This document shows, in pieces, positions 2,232-52,182 of a DNA stretch of 64,000 nt. The stretch lies in assembly GCF_003018235.1 (NCBI RefSeq), contig NZ_CP027437.1; one strand, 5' to 3'. How positions within the stretch are numbered: position 1 is the stretch's first letter; every line of letters starts with the position of its first letter. The notes under the pieces were generated by a model, which did not search any database, was not told the DNA's origin, and was given only the letters and a program-made list of their open reading frames with translations. Origin of the DNA: Escherichia coli (GTDB taxonomy: Bacteria > Pseudomonadota > Gammaproteobacteria > Enterobacterales > Enterobacteriaceae). The translations under genes and the position numbers were made by a program.

Positions 2232-3623
<1,392 letters not shown>

Positions 3624-3627
3624 CCCT

Positions 3628-3656
3628 GACGGCCTCTGCGGAGGCCGTCACTCTTT
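3628..3656. terminator. Hairpin between convergent pntB and tqsA, likely bidirectional rho-independent terminator
   Basis: gacggcctc-tgc-gaggccgtc perfect 9-bp stem immediately after pntB stop, followed by T-rich tract. Confidence 0.6.
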
Positions 3657-4682
3657 ATTGAGATCGCTTAACAGAACGGCGATGCTTTGACCTCCCGCTG
3701 TTTGTTCAAGCGCAATTTTGACAATAATTGTCAACGGCACGGAAAGCAGCATACCCACCGGTCCTAACAACCATCCCCAAAAAATCAACGACAAAAATAC
3801 CACCAATGTCGAAAGCCCCAGCCCACGTCCCATGATGCGCGGCTCCAGAATATTGCCGAAGACCAGATTAATCAGCAGATATCCCGCCAGCACCAGCAAC
3901 GCTTCGTAGAAGCCATTAAACACCAGTACCTGAGCGATAGGGGGGATTGCCGCGAGAACTGAACCAATATTCGGGATGTAATTAAGCGCAAAGGCCAGCA
4001 ATCCCCAGACAAAAGCGAAGCGAACATCGAGTGCGGCGAGCATCGCCCAGGCGACCAGGCCGGTGATGATGCTGATGGCTGTTTTCAGCACCAGATAATG
4101 AGACACACTGTCAATCGCACGCTGAATCGCCGCCATCCCTTCAACCGGACGCGCCATCATTTGCTGAAATTTTCCGGGCAATTGTGGCACTTCGAGCAAC
4201 ATAAACAGCACCGTCAGCAGCAATAAAAATATTGATGACATGGCATTAGATAACTGCGTCAATAAGTTGGTGAGCAACGTCATCGCCGCGTTCGGATCAA
4301 TGTAATGCGCCAGTTGGTCAACTGAGACATCAATCCCTACGCGTTGCAACAACGGTTCAATCGCTTGCAGCGGCGTCATAATAGAGTTGCGATATTGCGG
4401 TAACGTCCGCGTCAACTCGTTGAGCGCGGAACCCAGATAAGCTAATAGCAACACCATCGCCATCACGATGATGGTCATCAAAATCGACACTGCCAGTACA
4501 CGCGGCACACGCCAGCGGACCATGTGTTGCACCAGCGGGTTAAGAATAACAGCAATAAATAATGCGAGAATAAACGGCACGATGATCTCGGCGGCAAAAC
4601 GGATACCGCAGAGAATAATGACCAGCATTCCCAACATAATGACGATTTTTAGGCCATTGAGCGTGATGATCGGCTTTGCCAT
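3648..4682 (-). CDS. tqsA: AI-2 exporter / AI-2E family transporter TqsA (YdgG)
   Basis: 344-aa polytopic membrane protein; size and synteny match ydgG/tqsA. Confidence 0.85.
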
Positions 4683-25884: not shown

Positions 25885-27180
25885 TTAATTTTTCATTGCT
25901 TCGTTATGGGGCATGGTTGGGGCAAACTCGCTTAACTGTGTATTTAACAAAGCTACCTGTGCATTATTGTTTTCAGACATCCATTTTCCGTATACCTGAA
26001 ATACCATTTGCGCATCTGCATGGCCCATCTGGTTTGCTATAAATGCCGGGTTAGCACCAGCTGTCAGCGACCAGCAGGCATAAGTATGTCTCGACTGATA
26101 TGATTTTCGATGGCGGAGTCCGGCACGTTTTATCGCTGCGTCCCACATCTGCCTTATTGAGTCAACGGTAAAATGGTCACCATAATTTTTTACTCTCGCT
26201 GACACTTCAGGTTGAAAAACAAAGGTGCATTTTTGTTTTTCTGTTCTGCCATACTCTCTGAGGTGAACATCAATGATATGCTCTTTGCTCAGTCTCGTTA
26301 ATGTCATCTGACTCCGGAGAGCGTCGATTGCTGGCTTAATAAGATGAATGACCCGATTGGTTCCCGCCTGTGTTTTTGGTACCGTGAAACGGTCTTTTGC
26401 TAAATTTCTCCTGATCATCATTGTTCCATTTTTCAGATCTATGTCCTCCCATCCAAGTGCACACAGCTCACCAGGGCGAACGCCAGTATAAACAGAAACA
26501 CACCATAAATTTTTTGCTTGCTGATTTCTGCACGCATCGATAAGACGGATAAATTCCTCCCGCGAAAGAGGATCCGGAATGGTTCTTGATTCCTTTAATG
26601 GCGAGATCCCCTTAAACGGATTATCTGGCAGGTAACCGTTATCAACACCAAACTGGAACACGGCGTTAAGATTTGTCATGTAATTATTTACAGTTACAGC
26701 CGATCTCCCTGGTTGTGTAACAATATAGTTACTTTTGGGGATCTGGTATCCAGTCAGTAGCTCTTTACGAACCTCCAGTAATTTTTCTTTATTAATCGAT
26801 GAGGCAAGATTTTTTTCACCGATTATGCTCAGGATATTTTTGATGACGGCACGGTATGTGTTGAGTGATGTTTTGGCGACTTCAGTTTCTTTCAGTGCCA
26901 GAAATTTTTCAGCCAGTTCTTTTATGGTTAAATCTTGTCGGGCCTCACCAAATTTTTCCAGATTGCGTGAGGAGGGAAACTGTTTTGCATAGTCGAAAAC
27001 ACCAGTTTTTATTGCGTAACAAACAGAGGAGCGTAGTTCACCTGCAACGCGCCTGTTTTTTGCTGTGTCAGGAACCCCCAGATTTTCCCTGACTCTTACG
27101 CCTTTATAAACAAACCAGATACGTAATTTCCATCCATGGTTTTCCACGCCTGTCGGATATTTCATTTCAACTTCTCTCAT
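25885..27180 (-). CDS. intQ: Prophage tyrosine integrase (lambda Int family), apparently intact
   Basis: 431-aa ORF (alternative start MKYPTGVENHGWKL at 27165); C-terminal catalytic region with R...HxxR...Y residues (RHRKSYQSRHTYACW... MGHADAQMVFQVYGKW); adjacent to attachment junction. Confidence 0.85.
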   Translation of the reverse strand: MREVEMKYPTGVENHGWKLRIWFVYKGVRVRENLGVPDTAKNRRVAGELRSSVCYAIKTGVFDYAKQFPSSRNLEKFGEARQDLTIKELAEKFLALKETEVAKTSLNTYRAVIKNILSIIGEKNLASSINKEKLLEVRKELLTGYQIPKSNYIVTQPGRSAVTVNNYMTNLNAVFQFGVDNGYLPDNPFKGISPLKESRTIPDPLSREEFIRLIDACRNQQAKNLWCVSVYTGVRPGELCALGWEDIDLKNGTMMIRRNLAKDRFTVPKTQAGTNRVIHLIKPAIDALRSQMTLTRLSKEHIIDVHLREYGRTEKQKCTFVFQPEVSARVKNYGDHFTVDSIRQMWDAAIKRAGLRHRKSYQSRHTYACWSLTAGANPAFIANQMGHADAQMVFQVYGKWMSENNNAQVALLNTQLSEFAPTMPHNEAMKN

Positions 27181-27523: not shown

Positions 27524-29995
27524 TTAAGAATCAGCCTGACTCGGGATCAGTTTTTGCCAGATAACTGAAACGTATTTTGCCTGGTAACGGGCGTCATCAA
27601 GTGCATTATGGCGCTCACCTTCGAATGGAATAGCCGTTCTGGCATCGAAGTCTATGGCTTTCCCCAGCTCAACGATTGTGCGTACATCGCGATCGTTGTA
27701 GTAACGCCACGGGCAGGGGATCCCCTGCCGTTCGTATGAACGGCGCAAAATCGTGTTGTCGAAGTTGGCTCCATTTCCCCAAACCTGAACAAAAAATTCA
27801 CCGGAGTTTTCGTCGATAAATTCCCGCAATTGTAACAGTGCATCATCTAACGGGATTTCATCGGTCATAATGGCAGATTGCGCTTCGCGTGATTGCTTAA
27901 GCCACCATTTAATGGTGTCCCGATCAATGACTCCGCCAGCAGTTTCCAGATCGATAGTCTTACTAAATTCCGGTCCCATATCTCCGGTTTGCGGATCGAA
28001 AAATATTGCACCTATTGAGATGATCGGGGCATCAGGATTTTTTCCCATGGTTTCAAGGTCGATCATTAGATGGTCACACGTCCTGCTGGTGGATGTGATT
28101 TCGTGATGACCGTTCACCTTAATTGAGTGATCTGCCGTCTCGCCAGTTTCATTATCGCTATTGTGATGCTGATTGCCGCCAGTGTTCTCCTTGTGTGGAT
28201 GTTCAGCGCCTTCCATTTCCTCCGGATCATCTTCCTGAACTTCAACCTGATACTCTTCATCGAATGTTTCTTGGTATGTTGCGTCGCCCATCACCGCGCC
28301 ACAATCAGGGCAGTTGCCGCCGCCGGTCTGACCGCAGGCGGTGCAGACTTTTTCCACTTCCTGTTGCGCCACTGGTTCAGGCTGTTTCGTTTCTGGCTCG
28401 TTTTGTAACGCATTTGTGCTGTTTTGTTCCGCTTTTTGGTAGTTCCGTTCCGATTCATGCTGGTTCTGGTTCACAGAATCGCGGGTCTGGATCCCCTTAA
28501 CCCATTTCGGATCATTCGGGTCACTAATCCCTTCAACAAATTCACCACGTGATGCAGCAAGCAACTTATCGGCGTCAGGCTGGCTGATATTGGCTGCCTG
28601 CATAATTTTGTTTACTTCGTCAGCGGTAACTTTTATCGGCTCTGGTTGTTCTGAATCTTCAGCGGTATCTACATTTTGCGGTAAGCCCGTGTATGTGCCA
28701 TTTTTTCGGGCAAAATATTCTTCTTTTGTGATTTCAGTGGCGCCAGCAGCCAGTGCCTTATCCAGACCAGAAAGTTTGTTTGCGCGACCGTATTTTTCTC
28801 CGTCCTTATCTGCGAAGAGGAAATAGAACGGCCCCTCACGCTCTACAGATGGTTCAGCTTCCGGCGCGGTTTCATTTTTTGGGATATCAGATACCTCAGT
28901 TTCCACTGCATCAGTTTGTGTTTCTGATGACTGGAGAACATCAACAGTGCCCAGGTCTGTTTCTTCATTCTCAAACACGCCCTTTGTCGTCAGGTATTCG
29001 CAGATATATTTGTTCAGTGCTATGGGATCTTTGTGAATGTCGATCGGACGCTCACGGACAAGGCCAAAAATAGTCTGGCGGTCGTAGCGAAGGGCATCAG
29101 GCTGTTTGCGCATTGATGCCGAGATACGCTTCCAGTCTTCGCGGTCGTTGTCGATAACTTCTTTTTTTGCCCAGCGATGGATGCTGCCGTCAATGTTTCC
29201 GGCATCCACATCACCAGGCCAGAGAGCGTAGGCCAGTTCGTCATCCAGTGTTTTCCATGTCTGCTTGTATTCGCGATGAATGGCAGCAATGACCGGGCTG
29301 ATTTTTCCTGTTGAATTTTCAGTGTACTGTTGATTGGCTCTGGCGCGGGCGAGATCAACAACAGACGTGTATTTTCCGGTTTCCTTGCGTTCACCTTCGC
29401 GACGTTTTTTCCAGATGCGCATCTCTGCCTGAATTTCGGGCCATTTAGCACCAGGAATACATTTATGCTTAACCCACCCAATGGCGTGCAACTTAAGCTC
29501 CGGATACATGGCGTTAACTTCTGGCATTTTCATCAACGCTTCAACGATATGTCCGTCGAATGTTGCCATGTCTTCCTGCAACAATTCCTGTGCGCTAATA
29601 ACCATATCAACGGTGATGTTTTCACATGTGTCGAACTTAACCATGACAGCGTTCTGTACTTCAGGGGCCAGCTTGTCAAAAGTGACGTTCATCGGATCGG
29701 ATTCAGTCTCAACCGGGACAAAAGAAGCAGACTCCTCATCCCAGCGGTTTTCCTGCATATATTCAGCATCCCATGAATCGAGGGCAGGGCGGGGTATGCC
29801 AGGTTTATCCTCGCAGACAATAAATTTATAAGCGCAGTCCTGAGCAGCCGGATAATGTTCCAGGAACTGCCAGTGAAATTTTGCTCGAGCACGGCGTTCG
29901 TCGCCAGCTTCAATGGCTGTGGCTACAGCCACAGCGCCTTCTTCCCTTGTTGCCAGTTCGTCAGGAATAGCGGCGCAAATAAAGACTTTACTCAT
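27524..29995 (-). CDS. Large prophage protein with C-terminal DnaQ-like 3'-5' exonuclease domain (full-length YdfE-like; annotated in related prophages as exodeoxyribonuclease VIII)
   Basis: 823 aa; C-terminal ~190 aa carries exonuclease-type acidic motifs (MIDLETMG, WGNGANFD, HNALDDARYQ); central CxxC...CxxC (CTACGQTGGGNCPDCG); acidic low-complexity linker. Confidence 0.7.
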   Translation of the reverse strand: MSKVFICAAIPDELATREEGAVAVATAIEAGDERRARAKFHWQFLEHYPAAQDCAYKFIVCEDKPGIPRPALDSWDAEYMQENRWDEESASFVPVETESDPMNVTFDKLAPEVQNAVMVKFDTCENITVDMVISAQELLQEDMATFDGHIVEALMKMPEVNAMYPELKLHAIGWVKHKCIPGAKWPEIQAEMRIWKKRREGERKETGKYTSVVDLARARANQQYTENSTGKISPVIAAIHREYKQTWKTLDDELAYALWPGDVDAGNIDGSIHRWAKKEVIDNDREDWKRISASMRKQPDALRYDRQTIFGLVRERPIDIHKDPIALNKYICEYLTTKGVFENEETDLGTVDVLQSSETQTDAVETEVSDIPKNETAPEAEPSVEREGPFYFLFADKDGEKYGRANKLSGLDKALAAGATEITKEEYFARKNGTYTGLPQNVDTAEDSEQPEPIKVTADEVNKIMQAANISQPDADKLLAASRGEFVEGISDPNDPKWVKGIQTRDSVNQNQHESERNYQKAEQNSTNALQNEPETKQPEPVAQQEVEKVCTACGQTGGGNCPDCGAVMGDATYQETFDEEYQVEVQEDDPEEMEGAEHPHKENTGGNQHHNSDNETGETADHSIKVNGHHEITSTSRTCDHLMIDLETMGKNPDAPIISIGAIFFDPQTGDMGPEFSKTIDLETAGGVIDRDTIKWWLKQSREAQSAIMTDEIPLDDALLQLREFIDENSGEFFVQVWGNGANFDNTILRRSYERQGIPCPWRYYNDRDVRTIVELGKAIDFDARTAIPFEGERHNALDDARYQAKYVSVIWQKLIPSQADS

Positions 29996-48024: not shown

Positions 48025-49532
48025 TGGCAATTCTTGATGATGTGATTGGCGTTTTTTCACCAGGATGGAAAGCGGCAAGGCTGCGTTCCCGAGCGGTGAT
48101 CCAAGCTTATGAGGCCGTAAAAACGACGCGGACACACAAAGCCCGACGGGAGAACCGAACTGCCGACCAGTTAAGCCAGTACGGGGCCGTGTCGTTACGT
48201 GAGCAGGCCCGTTACCTTGATAACAACCACGATCTGGTCATTGGTGTATCTGACAAGCTGGAAGAACGGGTGGTGGGGAAAAACGGGATTATTGTCGAGC
48301 CACATCCGGTATTACGCAATGGTGCCATTGCCCGTGACCTGGCAGCGGAGATACGTACCCGATGGAGTGAATGGTCTGTCAGTCCGGAAGTCACCGGGCA
48401 GTTTACCCGTCCGATGCTGGAACGTCTGATGCTGCGTACCTGGCTGCGCGATGGTGAGGTGTTTGCCCAGATGGTTTCCGGGCGCATAAACAGCCTGACG
48501 CCTTCTGCCGGTGTTCATTTCTGGCTGGAGGCGCTCGAGCCGGACTTTATTCCCATGACCAGTGATGAGAGCAACAGGCTGAATCAGGGCGTGTTTGTTG
48601 ATGACTGGGGGCGTCCCGAAAAATATCTGGTGTATAAAAGTCGTCCTGTATCCGGACGGCAGATGGAAACCAAAGAAGTGGATGCAGAGCGAATGCTGCA
48701 TCTTAAATTTGTTCGCCGTCTGCACCAGATGCGCGGGACGTCTTTATTGTCCGGTGTGCTGATCCGCCTCAGCGCCCTGAAAGAGTATGAAGATTCTGAG
48801 CTGACTGCAGCAAGGATCGCCGCTGCTCTGGGGATGTACATCCGGAAAGGCGACGGACAGAGCTATGAAACGGATGGTAATGACAGCAAGGAGAATGAAC
48901 GCGAGCTTACCATTCAGCCAGGCATTATTTACGACGATCTGAAACCCGGCGAAGAAATCGGAATGGTGAAGTCGGATCGTCCCAATCCTAACCTTGAAAC
49001 TTTTCGTAATGGTCAGTTGCGTGCCGTGGCGGCGGGCAGTCGTCTGAGTTTTTCCAGTACGGCACGCAACTATAACGGCACTTACAGCGCCCAGCGTCAG
49101 GAACTGGTTGAGTCTACTGATGGCTACCTGATCCTGCAGGACTGGTTTATTGGTGCCGTCACCCGCCCGATGTATCGTGCCTGGCTGAAACAGGCTGTGG
49201 CATCCGGTGTTATCAGGCTACCCCGCGATCTTGACCGTTCTTCACTGTATACCGCGGTGTATTCCGGACCAGTGATGCCGTGGATTGACCCTGTTAAGGA
49301 GGCTGAGGCCTGGAAAATCCAGATTCGTGGTGGAGCGGCGACAGAATCAGACTGGGTACGTGCTGGTGGTCGTAATCCGGATGATGTCAAACGTCGGCGC
49401 AAGGCCGAAATTGATGAAAACCGCAAGCTGGATCTGGTATTTGATACCGATCCGGCCAGTGATAAAGGAGGCAGCAGTGCCGCAACGAAACGACAGGAGC
49501 CGCAGCACACCGACGACCAGTCCGAAGAATAA
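48024..49532 (+). CDS. Portal protein (lambda gpB-like)
   Basis: 502 aa from MAILDDVIGVFSPGWKAARLRSRAVIQAYEAV; track ORF carries an upstream extension overlapping W. Confidence 0.8.
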   Translation: MAILDDVIGVFSPGWKAARLRSRAVIQAYEAVKTTRTHKARRENRTADQLSQYGAVSLREQARYLDNNHDLVIGVSDKLEERVVGKNGIIVEPHPVLRNGAIARDLAAEIRTRWSEWSVSPEVTGQFTRPMLERLMLRTWLRDGEVFAQMVSGRINSLTPSAGVHFWLEALEPDFIPMTSDESNRLNQGVFVDDWGRPEKYLVYKSRPVSGRQMETKEVDAERMLHLKFVRRLHQMRGTSLLSGVLIRLSALKEYEDSELTAARIAAALGMYIRKGDGQSYETDGNDSKENERELTIQPGIIYDDLKPGEEIGMVKSDRPNPNLETFRNGQLRAVAAGSRLSFSSTARNYNGTYSAQRQELVESTDGYLILQDWFIGAVTRPMYRAWLKQAVASGVIRLPRDLDRSSLYTAVYSGPVMPWIDPVKEAEAWKIQIRGGAATESDWVRAGGRNPDDVKRRRKAEIDENRKLDLVFDTDPASDKGGSSAATKRQEPQHTDDQSEE

Positions 49533-49545
49533 TTCCTGGTTCAGG

Positions 49546-51504
49546 ATGCAGGCTGGTCACCAGAGTGACGCGGATATTTATATTTATGACGAGATTGGTT
49601 TCTGGGGTGTTACAGCGAAGCAGTTTATCAGTGATCTGAATGCACTGGGCGATATCACCCACATTAATCTCCATATTAATTCACCGGGTGGCGATGTCTT
49701 TGAAGGCATCGCCATTTTTAATGCGCTGAAAACACATGGTGCGTCCATTACCGTTTATGTCGACGGTGTGGCGGCGTCAATGGCGTCGGTCATTGCGATG
49801 GTGGGAAACCCGGTCATTATGCCGGAAAACACTTTCATGATGATTCATAAACCATTTGGCTTTACGGGCGGTGATGCGGAGGACATGCGCACCTATGCCG
49901 ACCTGCTCGATAAAGTTGAGGCGGTTCTGTTACCCGCTTATGCACAGAAAACCGGGAAAACCACCGATGAAATTGCTGCCATGCTGGCGGATGAGACCTG
50001 GATGTCCGGTGCCGAATGTCTGGCACATGGATTTGCTGATCAGGTAACGCCAGCCGTTAAGGCAATGGCATGTATTCAGTCAAAACGTACAGAGGAATTT
50101 AAAAAGATGCCGGAATCCATTCGAAACATGATTACTCCGCCACGCAACAGTGCTCCACGCGTACAGGATGATGAACCTGCAGCCTCCCGGACGCCAGTGC
50201 AGGCAGCAGCACCCGTGGTGGATGAAAACAGTATCCGTGCGCAGGTACTGGCAGAGCAAAAAGCGCGTGTAAACGGTATTAATGATCTGTTTGCCATGTT
50301 TGGCGGGCGTTATCAGACTCTGCAGGCTCAGTGTCTTGCCGATCCTGAATGTTCGCTGGAGCAGGCCCGCGAAAAGCTGTTGAACGAGATGGGGCGCGAG
50401 TCCACGCCATCCAATAAAAATACCCCGGCTCATATTTATGCCGGTAACGGTAATTTTGTGGGGGACGGGATCCGCCAGGCGCTGATGGCGCGTGCCGGAT
50501 TTGAAAAAACCGAACGTGATAATGTCTACAACGGGATGACCCTGCGTGAATATGCCCGTATGTCACTGACTGAACGGGGTATTGGGGTTTCCAGTTATAA
50601 CCCGATGCAGATGGTCGGTGCGGCGTTCACACACAGTACGTCTGACTTCGGTAATATTCTGCTGGATGTTGCGAACAAAGCCATTCTGCAGGGCTGGGAA
50701 GATGCTCCTGAAACCTATGAACAGTGGACGCGGAAAGGTCAGTTGTCTGATTTTAAAATTGCCCATCGTGTGGGTATGGGGGGCTTCAGTGCTCTGCGTC
50801 AGGTGCGTGAAGGGGCGGAATATAAATACGTCACCACCGGAGATAAACAGGCCACTATTGCACTGGCGACCTATGGCGAGCTGTTCAGTATCACCCGTCA
50901 GGCCATTATCAATGATGATCTGAATATGCTGACCGATGTCCCGATGAAGCTGGGCCGTGCGGCGAAATCCACCATTGCCGATCTGGTTTATGCCATTCTG
51001 ACGTCTAACCCGAAAATCTCCACAGATAATGTAAGTCTGTTCGATAAAGCGAAACATGCAAACGTACTGGAGAGCGCTGCAATGGACGTGGCATCGCTGG
51101 ATAAAGCCCGCCAGTTGATGCGCGTTCAGAAAGAGGGGGAGCGTCATCTGAATATTCGTCCTGCGTTCGTACTGGTACCGACGGCGATGGAGTCTGTTGC
51201 TAACCAGGTCATTCGCTCCTCAAGTGTCAAGGGGGCTGACATTAACGCCGGTATTATTAACCCGGTGAAAGATTTTGCGACCGTTATTGCAGAGCCTCGT
51301 CTTGATGATAACAGCCAGACCACCTTCTACCTGGCTGCGTCCAAAGGCTCCGATACGATTGAAGTGGCTTATCTCAACGGTGTGGATACGCCATATATTG
51401 ATCAGATGGAGGGCTTCAGTGTGGATGGCGTGACAACGAAAGTGCGTATTGACGCCGGTGTCGCGCCAGTTGATCACCGCGGTCTGGTGAAATGTACGGC
51501 GTAA
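49546..51504 (+). CDS. Prohead protease (ClpP/S49-like) - scaffold - HK97-fold major capsid fusion protein
   Basis: 652 aa from MQAGHQSDADIYIYDEIGFWGV; N-terminal ClpP-like domain (INSPGGDVFEGIAIFNAL...ASMASVIAM), Ala/Gln-rich coiled linker, C-terminal ~350-aa capsid domain. Confidence 0.75.
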   Translation: MQAGHQSDADIYIYDEIGFWGVTAKQFISDLNALGDITHINLHINSPGGDVFEGIAIFNALKTHGASITVYVDGVAASMASVIAMVGNPVIMPENTFMMIHKPFGFTGGDAEDMRTYADLLDKVEAVLLPAYAQKTGKTTDEIAAMLADETWMSGAECLAHGFADQVTPAVKAMACIQSKRTEEFKKMPESIRNMITPPRNSAPRVQDDEPAASRTPVQAAAPVVDENSIRAQVLAEQKARVNGINDLFAMFGGRYQTLQAQCLADPECSLEQAREKLLNEMGRESTPSNKNTPAHIYAGNGNFVGDGIRQALMARAGFEKTERDNVYNGMTLREYARMSLTERGIGVSSYNPMQMVGAAFTHSTSDFGNILLDVANKAILQGWEDAPETYEQWTRKGQLSDFKIAHRVGMGGFSALRQVREGAEYKYVTTGDKQATIALATYGELFSITRQAIINDDLNMLTDVPMKLGRAAKSTIADLVYAILTSNPKISTDNVSLFDKAKHANVLESAAMDVASLDKARQLMRVQKEGERHLNIRPAFVLVPTAMESVANQVIRSSSVKGADINAGIINPVKDFATVIAEPRLDDNSQTTFYLAASKGSDTIEVAYLNGVDTPYIDQMEGFSVDGVTTKVRIDAGVAPVDHRGLVKCTA

Positions 51505-51524: not shown

Positions 51525-51547
51525 GATGGCCCGTAAGGGCTTTTTTT
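51525..51547 (+). terminator. Possible rho-independent terminator after capsid gene
   Basis: Short hairpin ggccc-gtaa-gggc followed by ttttttt. Confidence 0.4.
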
Positions 51548-51590
51548 GTACCTGAAATCAGCCTCTGAACGGGGCTGTGCGGAGACAGTT

Positions 51591-51914
51591 ATGGCAAAGA
51601 ATTTTGTAGAAGAAGGAAAAACGGTGGCGATTGTTGCCAGTGCAGCCATCAGCAGCGGAGATCTGGTGCAGGTGGGTGATGTTTTTGCGGTGGCGCTGAC
51701 CGATATTCCACAGGGTGAAACAGGCGACGGCATGACCGAAGGTGTGTTTATCCTGCCTAAACTGAAAACGGATGACATGAAAACGGGTAAGAAGGTTTAT
51801 CTGAAGTCCGGAAAAGTTCAGCTGACTAACAGCGGCTCTGATCCGCTGGTCGGGGTTGTCTGGGCAGATGCCGGAACCAGTGCAGAAGAAGTGCCGGTAA
51901 AACTCAATGTCTGA
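51591..51914 (+). CDS. Small head protein (decoration or head-completion protein, unassigned)
   Basis: 107 aa from MAKNFVEEGKTVAIVASAAISSGDLVQVGDVFAVALTDI after RBS GGAG; position directly after capsid gene. Confidence 0.5.
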   Translation: MAKNFVEEGKTVAIVASAAISSGDLVQVGDVFAVALTDIPQGETGDGMTEGVFILPKLKTDDMKTGKKVYLKSGKVQLTNSGSDPLVGVVWADAGTSAEEVPVKLNV

Positions 51915-52182
51915 TCCCTTTTCCCGGCTGGCAGCGCGTATGGATGCGATCACGGTCAGAAAGATGGGAAAGACAGCCTCGATTAATGATGTCGATATGG
52001 CTGTGATCCCGGGCGAAACACTGGCAGAGCTGAATGCTCTGTCCGGACCTGCGGTCTCTCTGGTGGTGTTTTCTTCGGGATACCGCCCACGGCGCGGGGA
52101 TCGCGTTGTTTATGACGGACAACAATGGACGGTCACACGGCATGAACGTTTTAACGGTAAGCCAATGATCTTTATTGAGTAA
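51907..52182 (+). CDS. Head-tail connector / head completion protein (FII-like position)
   Basis: 91-aa ORF overlapping the previous gene by 8 nt, upstream of gpZ homologue. Confidence 0.5.
   Translation: MSDPFSRLAARMDAITVRKMGKTASINDVDMAVIPGETLAELNALSGPAVSLVVFSSGYRPRRGDRVVYDGQQWTVTRHERFNGKPMIFIE

Follow-up and report, generated by a model that had tools for sequence, protein, structure and literature searches.

The head-shell gene of a lambdoid prophage of Escherichia coli, located in a window of 64,000 nucleotides (contig NZ_CP027437.1, assembly GCF_003018235.1), is a single gene of the Gifsy-2/mEp460/cdtI head type that very probably (at roughly 0.9) encodes a tripartite self-processing precursor. 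Domain, structure and homology evidence agree that a prohead protease, a scaffold-like linker and the major capsid domain lie in one polypeptide, as an earlier note on this DNA had proposed. This gene is the sole shell gene of a lambda-like head module, in which it is placed between the portal gene and the gene for a small cement protein (Table 1), and the interval between the terminase and the tail genes (45.2-54 kb) has no other gene for a capsid, a scaffold or a protease. The fused protease-scaffold-capsid arrangement is already known from Gifsy-2 and from a curated protein family. Given the Gifsy-2 description of 2010, that of MD8 in 2021, the existence of a dedicated NCBI naming model and the occurrence in ~40% of complete E. 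coli genomes, it has little weight as a discovery. The practical outcome is that annotation of the fusion gene should begin at GTG 49477, with a product of 675 aa, and not at ATG 49546.

Table 1. Coordinates of the fusion gene, its parts and its neighbors in the window (residues refer to the 675-aa form unless stated otherwise)
Feature	Coordinates	Strand	Residues or size	Remarks
gpA-type large terminase gene	45713..47815	+		Pfam GpA_ATPase and GpA_nuclease
Lambda-family portal gene	48024..49532	+		Pfam Phage_portal_2, E 8e-82; RefSeq coordinates; immediately upstream of the fusion gene
Shine-Dalgarno sequence AAAGGAGG	49463..49470	+		5-6 nt upstream of GTG 49477
Likely full CDS, protease/scaffold-like/capsid fusion	49477..51504	+	675 aa, 73.5 kDa
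ORF of the earlier note	49546..51504	+	652 aa	Starts at a Met codon inside the CDS and shares its frame
ClpP-fold serine protease domain	49537..50061	+	21-195
Putative catalytic Ser codon	49777..49779	+	S101 (S78 in the 652-aa form)	In GVAASMAS
Putative catalytic His codon	49846..49848	+	H124 (H101 in the 652-aa form)	In MIHKP
Junction segment	50062..50142	+	196-222	From the alignment
Variable disordered Ala/Pro/Val-rich linker	50143..50223	+	223-249
Conserved three-helix scaffold-like module	50224..50406	+	250-310	Up to the conserved Pro311
Variable loop	50407..50454	+	311-326
Conserved helical stretch	50455..50598	+	327-374	N-terminal to the capsid-profile region
HK97-fold major capsid domain	50599..51492	+	375-672	Phage_capsid_4, Mu gpT-like
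Terminator-like hairpin GGCCCGTAAGGGCT, then TTTTTTT	51528..51548	+		Between the fusion gene and the cement gene
Head decoration/cement gene	51591..51914	+	107 aa	Phage_cement_2, E 1e-20; PHROG 122 'head decoration', E 1e-46

The forward-strand frame that holds positions 49546..51504 contains no stop codon throughout, is open upstream to position 49276 (the first start listed in it is TTG 49285) and ends at 51504; a run of 652 codons without a stop has an estimated chance of (61/64)^652, or ~1e-14. Neither a stop nor a change of frame separates the domains, which bears out the claim of a single polypeptide. Domain HMM searches, suggested in the note as a check, place Pfam CLP_protease (residues 23-168 of the 652-aa form, E 4e-36) and Phage_capsid_4 (residues 352-649 of the same form, E 7e-55) in this one frame. 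Reverse-strand ORFs that overlap the fusion gene, such as that at 50563..51147 (194 aa), lie wholly inside this supported forward-strand gene and were treated as shadow ORFs.

The entire protein belongs to the curated family NF045540 (scaf_prot_MCP1, 'ClpP-like prohead protease/major capsid protein fusion protein'), whose name is also the one that RefSeq gives to the identical gene. It scores 985.2 bits against a cutoff of 475, with residues 9-651 aligned to profile positions 2-651 of 652, and this end-to-end score is accompanied by a ClpP-related protease with the Ser and His residues and by an in-frame capsid domain. The sister model NF045541 (scaf_prot_MCP2) yields 400 bits, under its cutoff of 525, and covers residues 197-649 only, while PHROG 133 matches the protein over its full length. 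The fusion gene is found in 2124 of the 5426 complete E. coli genomes, in 2002 of them uninterrupted at ≥80% coverage, and each of the 10 records listed among the E. coli carriers has it as one CDS. It is also carried by isolated phages, including Tritos and PhiR55_1 (100% identical protein), mEp460 and cdtI (99.7%), Ayreon, HannyBb, LLS, and mEp213. Among the best 150 clusters at 50% identity, >100 are colinear fusions of 640-740 aa, and this architecture is kept by lineages that are only 36-60% identical.

This distribution bears on a rival explanation, to which we give almost no chance, in which separate protease and capsid genes have been joined into one ORF by a recent mutation or by an error of sequencing or assembly. 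One relative (L009, P0165) does have a 201-aa protease ORF apart from a scaffold-capsid ORF of 443 aa; however, homology to the fused protein runs in frame upstream of the second ATG and part of the L009 protease differs as if frameshifted, so this split resembles a frameshifted copy. A curated full-length model of the fusion also speaks against an artefact, as does the same unbroken gene in the divergent lineages. Because the gene is conserved across ~2000 complete genomes that are independent of one another, as well as in isolated phages, the fusion is not a frameshift artefact, and the concern that the note had raised in this respect can be dismissed.

The head and tail module around the gene is complete and syntenic with loci annotated as intact in RefSeq, and an integrase, a Q antiterminator, a lysozyme and a terminase are all present in the window. 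The prophage is located at rspAB/ynfE, the Qin locus, which is occupied by a defective prophage in E. coli K-12; this location would fit a non-functional remnant in a decaying prophage from which no capsid is made. Such decay is very unlikely here, in view of the completeness of the module, the presence of those other phage genes and the identity of the protein to those in the deposited genomes of Tritos and PhiR55_1, the latter with E. coli C as the host. In phage mEp213, a rho-independent terminator is annotated at the position equivalent to that of the hairpin downstream of the fusion gene. The product of the cement gene goes under DUF2190 in RefSeq naming.

The start of the gene is the point on which the earlier note, which had placed it at ATG 49546, probably went wrong. 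The most likely start is GTG 49477, which is favored because it is preceded by the Shine-Dalgarno sequence AAAGGAGG and is the start used by RefSeq at the identical locus (NZ_CP076706), because the relatives have Ile at the ATG, because a conserved Trp lies upstream of it and because of the first strand of the AlphaFold model. In a Shine-Dalgarno scan, AAGGAGG with a spacer of 5 is the only strong site in the frame, and the site before GTG 49477 is conserved in mEp213 and ASU11. The codon equivalent to ATG 49546 specifies Ile in Gifsy-2, Fels-1 and MD8; in an alignment of 78 homologues, this column holds Met in 11 and Ile in 37, and the conserved Trp is found three residues upstream. In the AlphaFold model, the first strand of the fold is placed in this same region, at residues 22-26 of the 675-aa form. 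With the GTG as its start, the CDS shares its first 56 nt, in a different frame, with the 3' end of the portal gene. Public phage records differ on the start, giving versions of 652, 675, and 707 aa, and on the product name, which ranges from 'terminase protein' to 'Nu3'.

The N-terminal part had been called ClpP/S49-like. The S14/ClpP half of this assignment stands: CLP_protease is the best match, NCBIfam Clp_rel_HeadMat covers residues 9-167 of the 652-aa form, and a sequence match to ClpP (E 4e-16) brings the motifs of the Ser and the His into register. Membership in the S49/SppA family was rejected, as the matches are weak and the models score far below their cutoffs. S101 is inside a G-x-A-A-S-M motif that is aligned with the same motif of ClpP, whose Ser is the ClpP nucleophile, and H124 is aligned with the His residue of the ClpP 'IHQP' motif. 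The position of ClpP Asp171 is occupied by Glu173 (Glu in 66 of the 78 homologues), so the triad is not canonical. Since the catalytic Ser and His are both invariant in all 78 homologues, it is plausible that the protease is active and that the precursor processes itself.

The AlphaFold model of the whole protein has a mean pLDDT of 89, with only residues 1-16, 223-245 and 316-318 disordered. The middle of the protein had been described as an Ala/Gln-rich coiled segment. It is only mildly Ala-rich (13% Ala, 7% Gln), and no evidence of a coiled coil was found in it; what it does contain is a disordered linker and helices. The junction segment that follows the protease carries a conserved Pro (Pro212 in 71 of the 78 homologues) and also includes Met211, which is kept in close relatives only. 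The linker, with pLDDT values of <50 at residues 223-245, is poorly conserved and gap-rich in the alignment and consists of 22% Ala, 15% Pro, and 15% Val. The scaffold-like module comprises helices 250-273, 280-288, and 294-307 (pLDDT 91-97) and has the conserved pattern E..R...I...F....L...CL.D....AR..LL..LG....P. The next loop, which is variable in length and sequence and has pLDDT values of <50 at residues 316-318, is one candidate zone for maturation cleavage. Residues 327-374, with predicted helices 327-340 and 356-365, are outside both the coverage of Phage_capsid_4 and the Mu gpT structures and could be retained in the mature protein as an extended N-arm or belong to the scaffold that is removed. 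Position, helicity and conservation suggest a scaffold role for residues 250-374 as a whole. The C-terminal ~350 aa had been assigned to an HK97-fold capsid; the fold assignment is right, but the profiles cover only the last ~300 aa.

Homology with Gifsy-2 and analogy with the HK97 delta domain and with lambda C/Nu3 are the basis on which we infer the geometry of assembly, the autoproteolysis, the sites of cleavage and the function of the middle region as a scaffold. The precursor itself consists, in order, of a ClpP-fold protease, the junction and the Ala/Pro/Val-rich linker, the helical module, and a Mu gpT-type capsid domain. Precursor molecules would come together on the portal, which is of the lambda type, to build a T=7 procapsid with a shell made of the capsid domains, the N-terminal protease and scaffold-like parts facing inward and guiding assembly. 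The protease domains concentrated there would then cut off and break down an N-terminal portion of 35-41 kDa from every subunit, themselves included. The fragments would exit, the gpA terminase would package the DNA, and the shell would expand and be bound and stabilized by the 107-aa cement protein encoded just downstream. A literature search for proteomic or N-terminal data on members of this family gave nothing usable.

N-terminal parts on all ~415 subunits would, by arithmetic from the masses, place ~15-17 MDa inside the procapsid. This packing and stoichiometry problem would be relieved if the gene had two products, the full-length precursor and a protease-less scaffold-capsid protein started at ATG 50107 (Met211, in 'KKMPES') that would resemble HK97 gp5. 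Under this scheme, judged improbable, the shorter product would form most of the shell and the full-length form would be a minority that supplies the protease, in an extension to the capsid of the nesting of lambda C and Nu3; if true, it would explain a T=7 procapsid without ~415 protease domains inside. Met211 is found exactly at the protease/linker boundary and is kept in the window and in ASU11, mEp213, Gifsy-2 and MD8, where GAGGA or CAGGA precedes it by 10-11 nt, and lambda employs a nested start of this kind according to a passage in PMC8508860 that cites Shaw and Murialdo (1980). However, only 7 of the 78 homologues have Met in this column (V, A, I, P, T, L, or one of a few further residues is present in the rest), and the GAGGA is dictated by conserved Glu-Glu codons and is at a long spacing. 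The Shine-Dalgarno scan found no strong internal site anywhere in the fusion gene, ATG 50107 with its weak GAGG being the only candidate, and no report of a Met211-initiated product was found in the literature searched, which lay outside the primary Gifsy-2 paper. Two relatives that had been considered as stand-alone scaffold-capsid genes starting at MPxS were rejected: the first, P0165 (L009), is apparently a copy with a frameshift and has an odd context, and in P0228 the ORF is truncated where its contig of 1.5 kb ends.

Among the closest known systems is Gifsy-2, in which STM1034.3n is a full-length colinear orthologue (69.8% identity over 100% of the query in tblastn); the Fels-1 counterpart is 72.3% identical to the fusion protein. 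Gifsy-2 and the window share the gene order of large terminase, small W-like gene, portal, fusion, ~107-aa protein, gpZ, gpU and gpV, as well as the overlapping ends of the portal and fusion genes. The ~30% divergence between the two proteins is concentrated in the linker, the Gifsy-2 version of which is the longer, and a functional difference is not evident. A 'tripartite capsid gene' of Gifsy-2 was reportedly characterized by Effantin et al. in 2010, in Virology 402:355. The gene is referred to as one that fuses the prohead protease with the coat protein in a passage of PMC12315714 that cites Effantin et al. 2010, the Gifsy-2 capsid is listed as T=7 (PMC8814770, Table 1), and its trimeric cement protein sits at the 3-fold axes (PMC8538268). 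Pseudomonas phage MD8, from a different host, encodes gp5 (annotated as 693 aa), which is 57% identical over the full length and which has been described, in silico only, as a protease, scaffold and major capsid protein from one gene with a decoration gene downstream (PMC8508860, section 2.5).

With the C/Nu3/E/D genes of lambda, the window shares the position of the module after the gpA terminase, W and the gpB-type portal, the fusion of a ClpP-superfamily protease to a scaffold region, and a cement protein that stabilizes the mature shell. In lambda, however, the gpE capsid protein is the product of a separate gene, whereas the capsid domain in the window is part of the fusion ORF, and the Nu3 scaffold is also produced from a nested internal start, of which the window has no convincing equivalent. 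Two further points set against lambda are that the protease of the window scores as S14/ClpP, with the S49/SppA models below their cutoffs, and that the cement protein belongs to Phage_cement_2, the sole family found in a Pfam scan at E ≤ 0.001. The protease of HK97 (gp4) is encoded by a separate gene and belongs to a different, herpesvirus-protease-like fold family, whereas that of the window is the N-terminal ClpP-fold domain of the same polypeptide. The HK97 delta domain is ~102 aa long, compared to a non-protease region of at least ~130 aa plus a ~195-aa protease in the window, and the internal load, if every subunit carries the N-terminal part, would far exceed that of the HK97 delta domains. 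HK97 also relies on a covalent chainmail instead of a cement protein (PMC8538268).

The plus-strand frame spanning positions 49546 to 51504 contains no stop codons (it stays open upstream as far as 49276, with TTG 49285 as the earliest listed start codon) and, read from ATG 49546, encodes 652 aa. In the numbering of that form, the Pfam domains CLP_protease and Phage_capsid_4 match residues 23-168 (E = 4e-36) and 352-649 (E = 7e-55), respectively, with a weaker match to Mu-like_gpT. The NCBIfam domain model NF045542 (“head maturation protease, ClpP-related”) covers residues 9-167, the whole-protein model NF045540 ([quoted passage not shown]) covers the protein end to end at 985 bits (cutoff, 475 bits), making it a member of that family, and PHROG 133 matches over the full length. 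The domain HMM searches suggested in the earlier note place CLP_protease, Phage_capsid_4, and NF045540 in the same frame and, together with the uninterrupted frame and the PHROG 133 match, bear out its claim of a single polypeptide with protease and capsid domains. The three-part fusion is real and far exceeds chance.

The DNA of this gene is found in 2124 of 5426 complete E. coli genomes (in 2002 at ≥80% coverage), and all 10 listed E. coli records carry a single CDS with exactly the NF045540 product name. Among phages, the protein is identical in Tritos and PhiR55_1 (100%) and is matched in mEp460, cdtI, Ayreon, HannyBb, and phi458 (99.4-99.8% identity), VT1-Sakai and Stx2 phages (~78%), mEp213, mEp043, and LLS (74%), Fels-1 (72.3%), Gifsy-2 (69.8%), a Providencia phage (64%), and Pseudomonas phages MD8 and F10 (~57%), every match being colinear along the full length. 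When cluster representatives at 50% identity were searched exhaustively, 6757 proteins matched at E ≤ 1e-30; among the 150 best of these, over 100 are colinear fusions of 640-740 aa with 36-60% identity. This conservation across genomes, phages, and distant homologues therefore rules out a stop or frameshift dividing two genes as a general explanation. In one relative (GCA_000755365.1, BBMQ01000056.1, positions 2411-4386), the protease (201 aa) and scaffold-capsid (443 aa) ORFs do lie in different frames, and no portal or terminase was seen among the surrounding genes upstream; this split is probably a frameshifted remnant or the product of a low-quality assembly, and the locus could be a satellite-type element. 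Product names in deposited phage genomes disagree, ranging over “Major Capsid Protein,” “head maturation protease,” “head-tail preconnector protein Nu3,” “putative protease,” “terminase protein,” and “hypothetical protein.”

The start proposed in the earlier note, ATG 49546, is probably not the true one. The identical gene in RefSeq begins 69 nt upstream, at GTG 49477. Ahead of this codon, at a spacing of 5 nt, lies AAAGGAGG, the sole strong Shine-Dalgarno match in the entire frame; mEp213 and ASU11 keep this GTG with AAAGGAGG. Gifsy-2, Fels-1, and MD8 have an Ile codon (ATC or ATT) in place of ATG 49546, and an S-W-[FY] motif directly upstream of this position is conserved at the protein level; of 78 diverse homologues, 37 have Ile and 11 have Met in this column, and 42 of the 56 ungapped sequences retain the upstream Trp. 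In the AlphaFold model built from that alignment (mean pLDDT, 89), the first beta-strand (residues 22-26 of the longer form) begins ahead of Met 49546. Together, the RefSeq start, AAAGGAGG, Ile column, conserved Trp, and strand position make a product of 675 aa (73.5 kDa) likely. The starts annotated in public phage records differ, giving at least three lengths (652, 675, and 707 aa). From this GTG, the first 56 nt of the fusion gene (49477-49532) are shared with the end of the portal gene, which is read in a different frame; annotations of Gifsy-2 (86 nt), mEp213, and MD8 show homologous overlaps, and the arrangement suggests translational coupling of the portal and the capsid precursor.

Genes of the prophage and regions of the fusion protein (675-aa numbering)
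Feature	Location	Strand	Basis or remark
Integrase	25885-27180	-	
823-aa protein, Rv2179c-like 3'-5' exoribonuclease domain	27524-29995	-	
DUF968			prophage in window
Q antiterminator	36270-37022		
Low-GC stretch	38-44 kb		36-44% G+C
Lysozyme	41148-41681		
DUF1441 protein	45219-45713		
gpA-type large terminase	45713-47815		
Small W-position gene	47812-48024		
Lambda-family portal	48024-49532		
Fusion gene	49477-51504	+	
107-aa Phage_cement_2 / “head decoration” protein	51591-51914		
PF13856 “Gifsy-2” family protein	51907-52182		
gpZ, gpU, gpV	after 52182		
Disordered basic extension	residues 1-16		AlphaFold model
ClpP-fold protease	residues 21-~195		
Junction, Pro212 near-invariant	residues 196-222		homologue alignment
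Ala/Pro/Val-rich linker, variable, disordered	residues 223-249		AlphaFold model and composition
Three conserved helices, up to conserved Pro311	residues 250-307		alignment and AlphaFold model
Variable loop	residues 311-326		pLDDT <50 at 316-318
Conserved helices outside capsid profiles	residues 327-374		
Capsid domain, Phage_capsid_4 / Mu gpT-like	residues 375-672		

The fusion gene lies within a lambda-like late module whose gene order is identical to that of Gifsy-2. No further capsid, scaffold, or protease gene was found in this module, so shell, scaffolding, and proteolysis must all come from the fusion polypeptide. A hairpin resembling a terminator (GGCCCGTAAGGGCT, then seven Ts) occupies 51528-51548, 24 nt past the stop codon and ~43 nt before the cement gene, and a rho-independent terminator is annotated at the equivalent place in mEp213. 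This hairpin could set the ratio of capsid precursor to downstream gene expression, an odd role if equal copies of the cement protein are needed. The lambdoid prophage itself (~25.7-64 kb) adjoins chromosomal genes resembling rspA/rspB and ynfE, the site occupied by the Qin prophage; in the identical RefSeq locus, the stretch that separates the lysis genes from the DUF1441 gene carries cold-shock and small-protein cargo (cspI, ynfQ, ynfR, ynfN, and gnsB; window ~42.5-43.6 kb).

The catalytic residues of the protease domain are intact. The position of the ClpP catalytic Asp is occupied by Glu173 (49993-49995), with Glu in 66 and Asp in 7 of the 78 family members, and catalysis in this family may rely on a Ser-His-Glu triad or on a Ser-His dyad. 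The “Ala/Gln-rich coiled segment” of the earlier note is only a loose description of the central part, as region 196-326 (13% Ala, 7% Gln) resembles the protease domain in composition; likewise, the C-terminal region does have the HK97 capsid fold but extends for ~300 aa by capsid-family profiles, not ~350. Effantin's 2010 work reportedly described a ClpP-like N-terminus and a C-terminal capsid protein on either side of a central domain of ~200 residues that might act as a scaffold, a layout that fits the domain boundaries found here.

By analogy supported by the Gifsy-2 and MD8 literature, precursors would build a T=7 procapsid on the portal, holding their N-terminal parts in its interior, and the protease domains would then cut off and degrade the N-terminal 35-41 kDa (computed masses for a mature N-terminus anywhere from residue ~327 to ~376), to be followed by DNA packaging, shell expansion, and binding of the cement protein. 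[quoted passage not shown] 2010). The Gifsy-2 capsid is T=7 (PMC8814770, Table 1), its cement protein is trimeric and sits at the 3-fold axes (PMC8538268), and in MD8 one gene (gp5) has been interpreted as encoding the protease, the scaffold, and the major capsid protein (PMC8508860, section 2.5). Loops 311-326, 341-355, 366-375, and 386-390 are candidate cleavage zones.

A T=7 head has ~415 subunits, from which the internal parts are computed to total ~15-17 MDa; an internal start similar to that of lambda Nu3, if used, would relieve this load. The only candidate, ATG 50107 (Met211), is placed at the protease/linker boundary. Close relatives keep this Met with GAGGA or CAGGA 10-11 nt upstream, whereas only 7 of the 78 homologues have Met in this column, and the Shine-Dalgarno-like bases are dictated by Glu-Glu codons; a scan across the fusion gene revealed no strong internal Shine-Dalgarno sequence. 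Use of this start is unlikely. Two apparent stand-alone scaffold-capsid genes beginning at Met211 were artefacts, owing to a contig end and a frameshifted copy.

The gene is orthologous to the tripartite capsid gene of Gifsy-2, and its fused protease/scaffold/capsid architecture is already known; the useful outcome is the corrected start and the domain map. In its working, it combines features of HK97, in which the scaffold is joined to the capsid protein and taken off by a phage protease, with features of lambda, in which a ClpP-superfamily protease is joined to the scaffold and a cement protein is added. The gene in the window belongs to neither system, because its capsid domain is part of the fusion and not a protein of its own, its protease has the ClpP fold, unlike the gp4-type protease of HK97, and its cement protein is of the Phage_cement_2 family.
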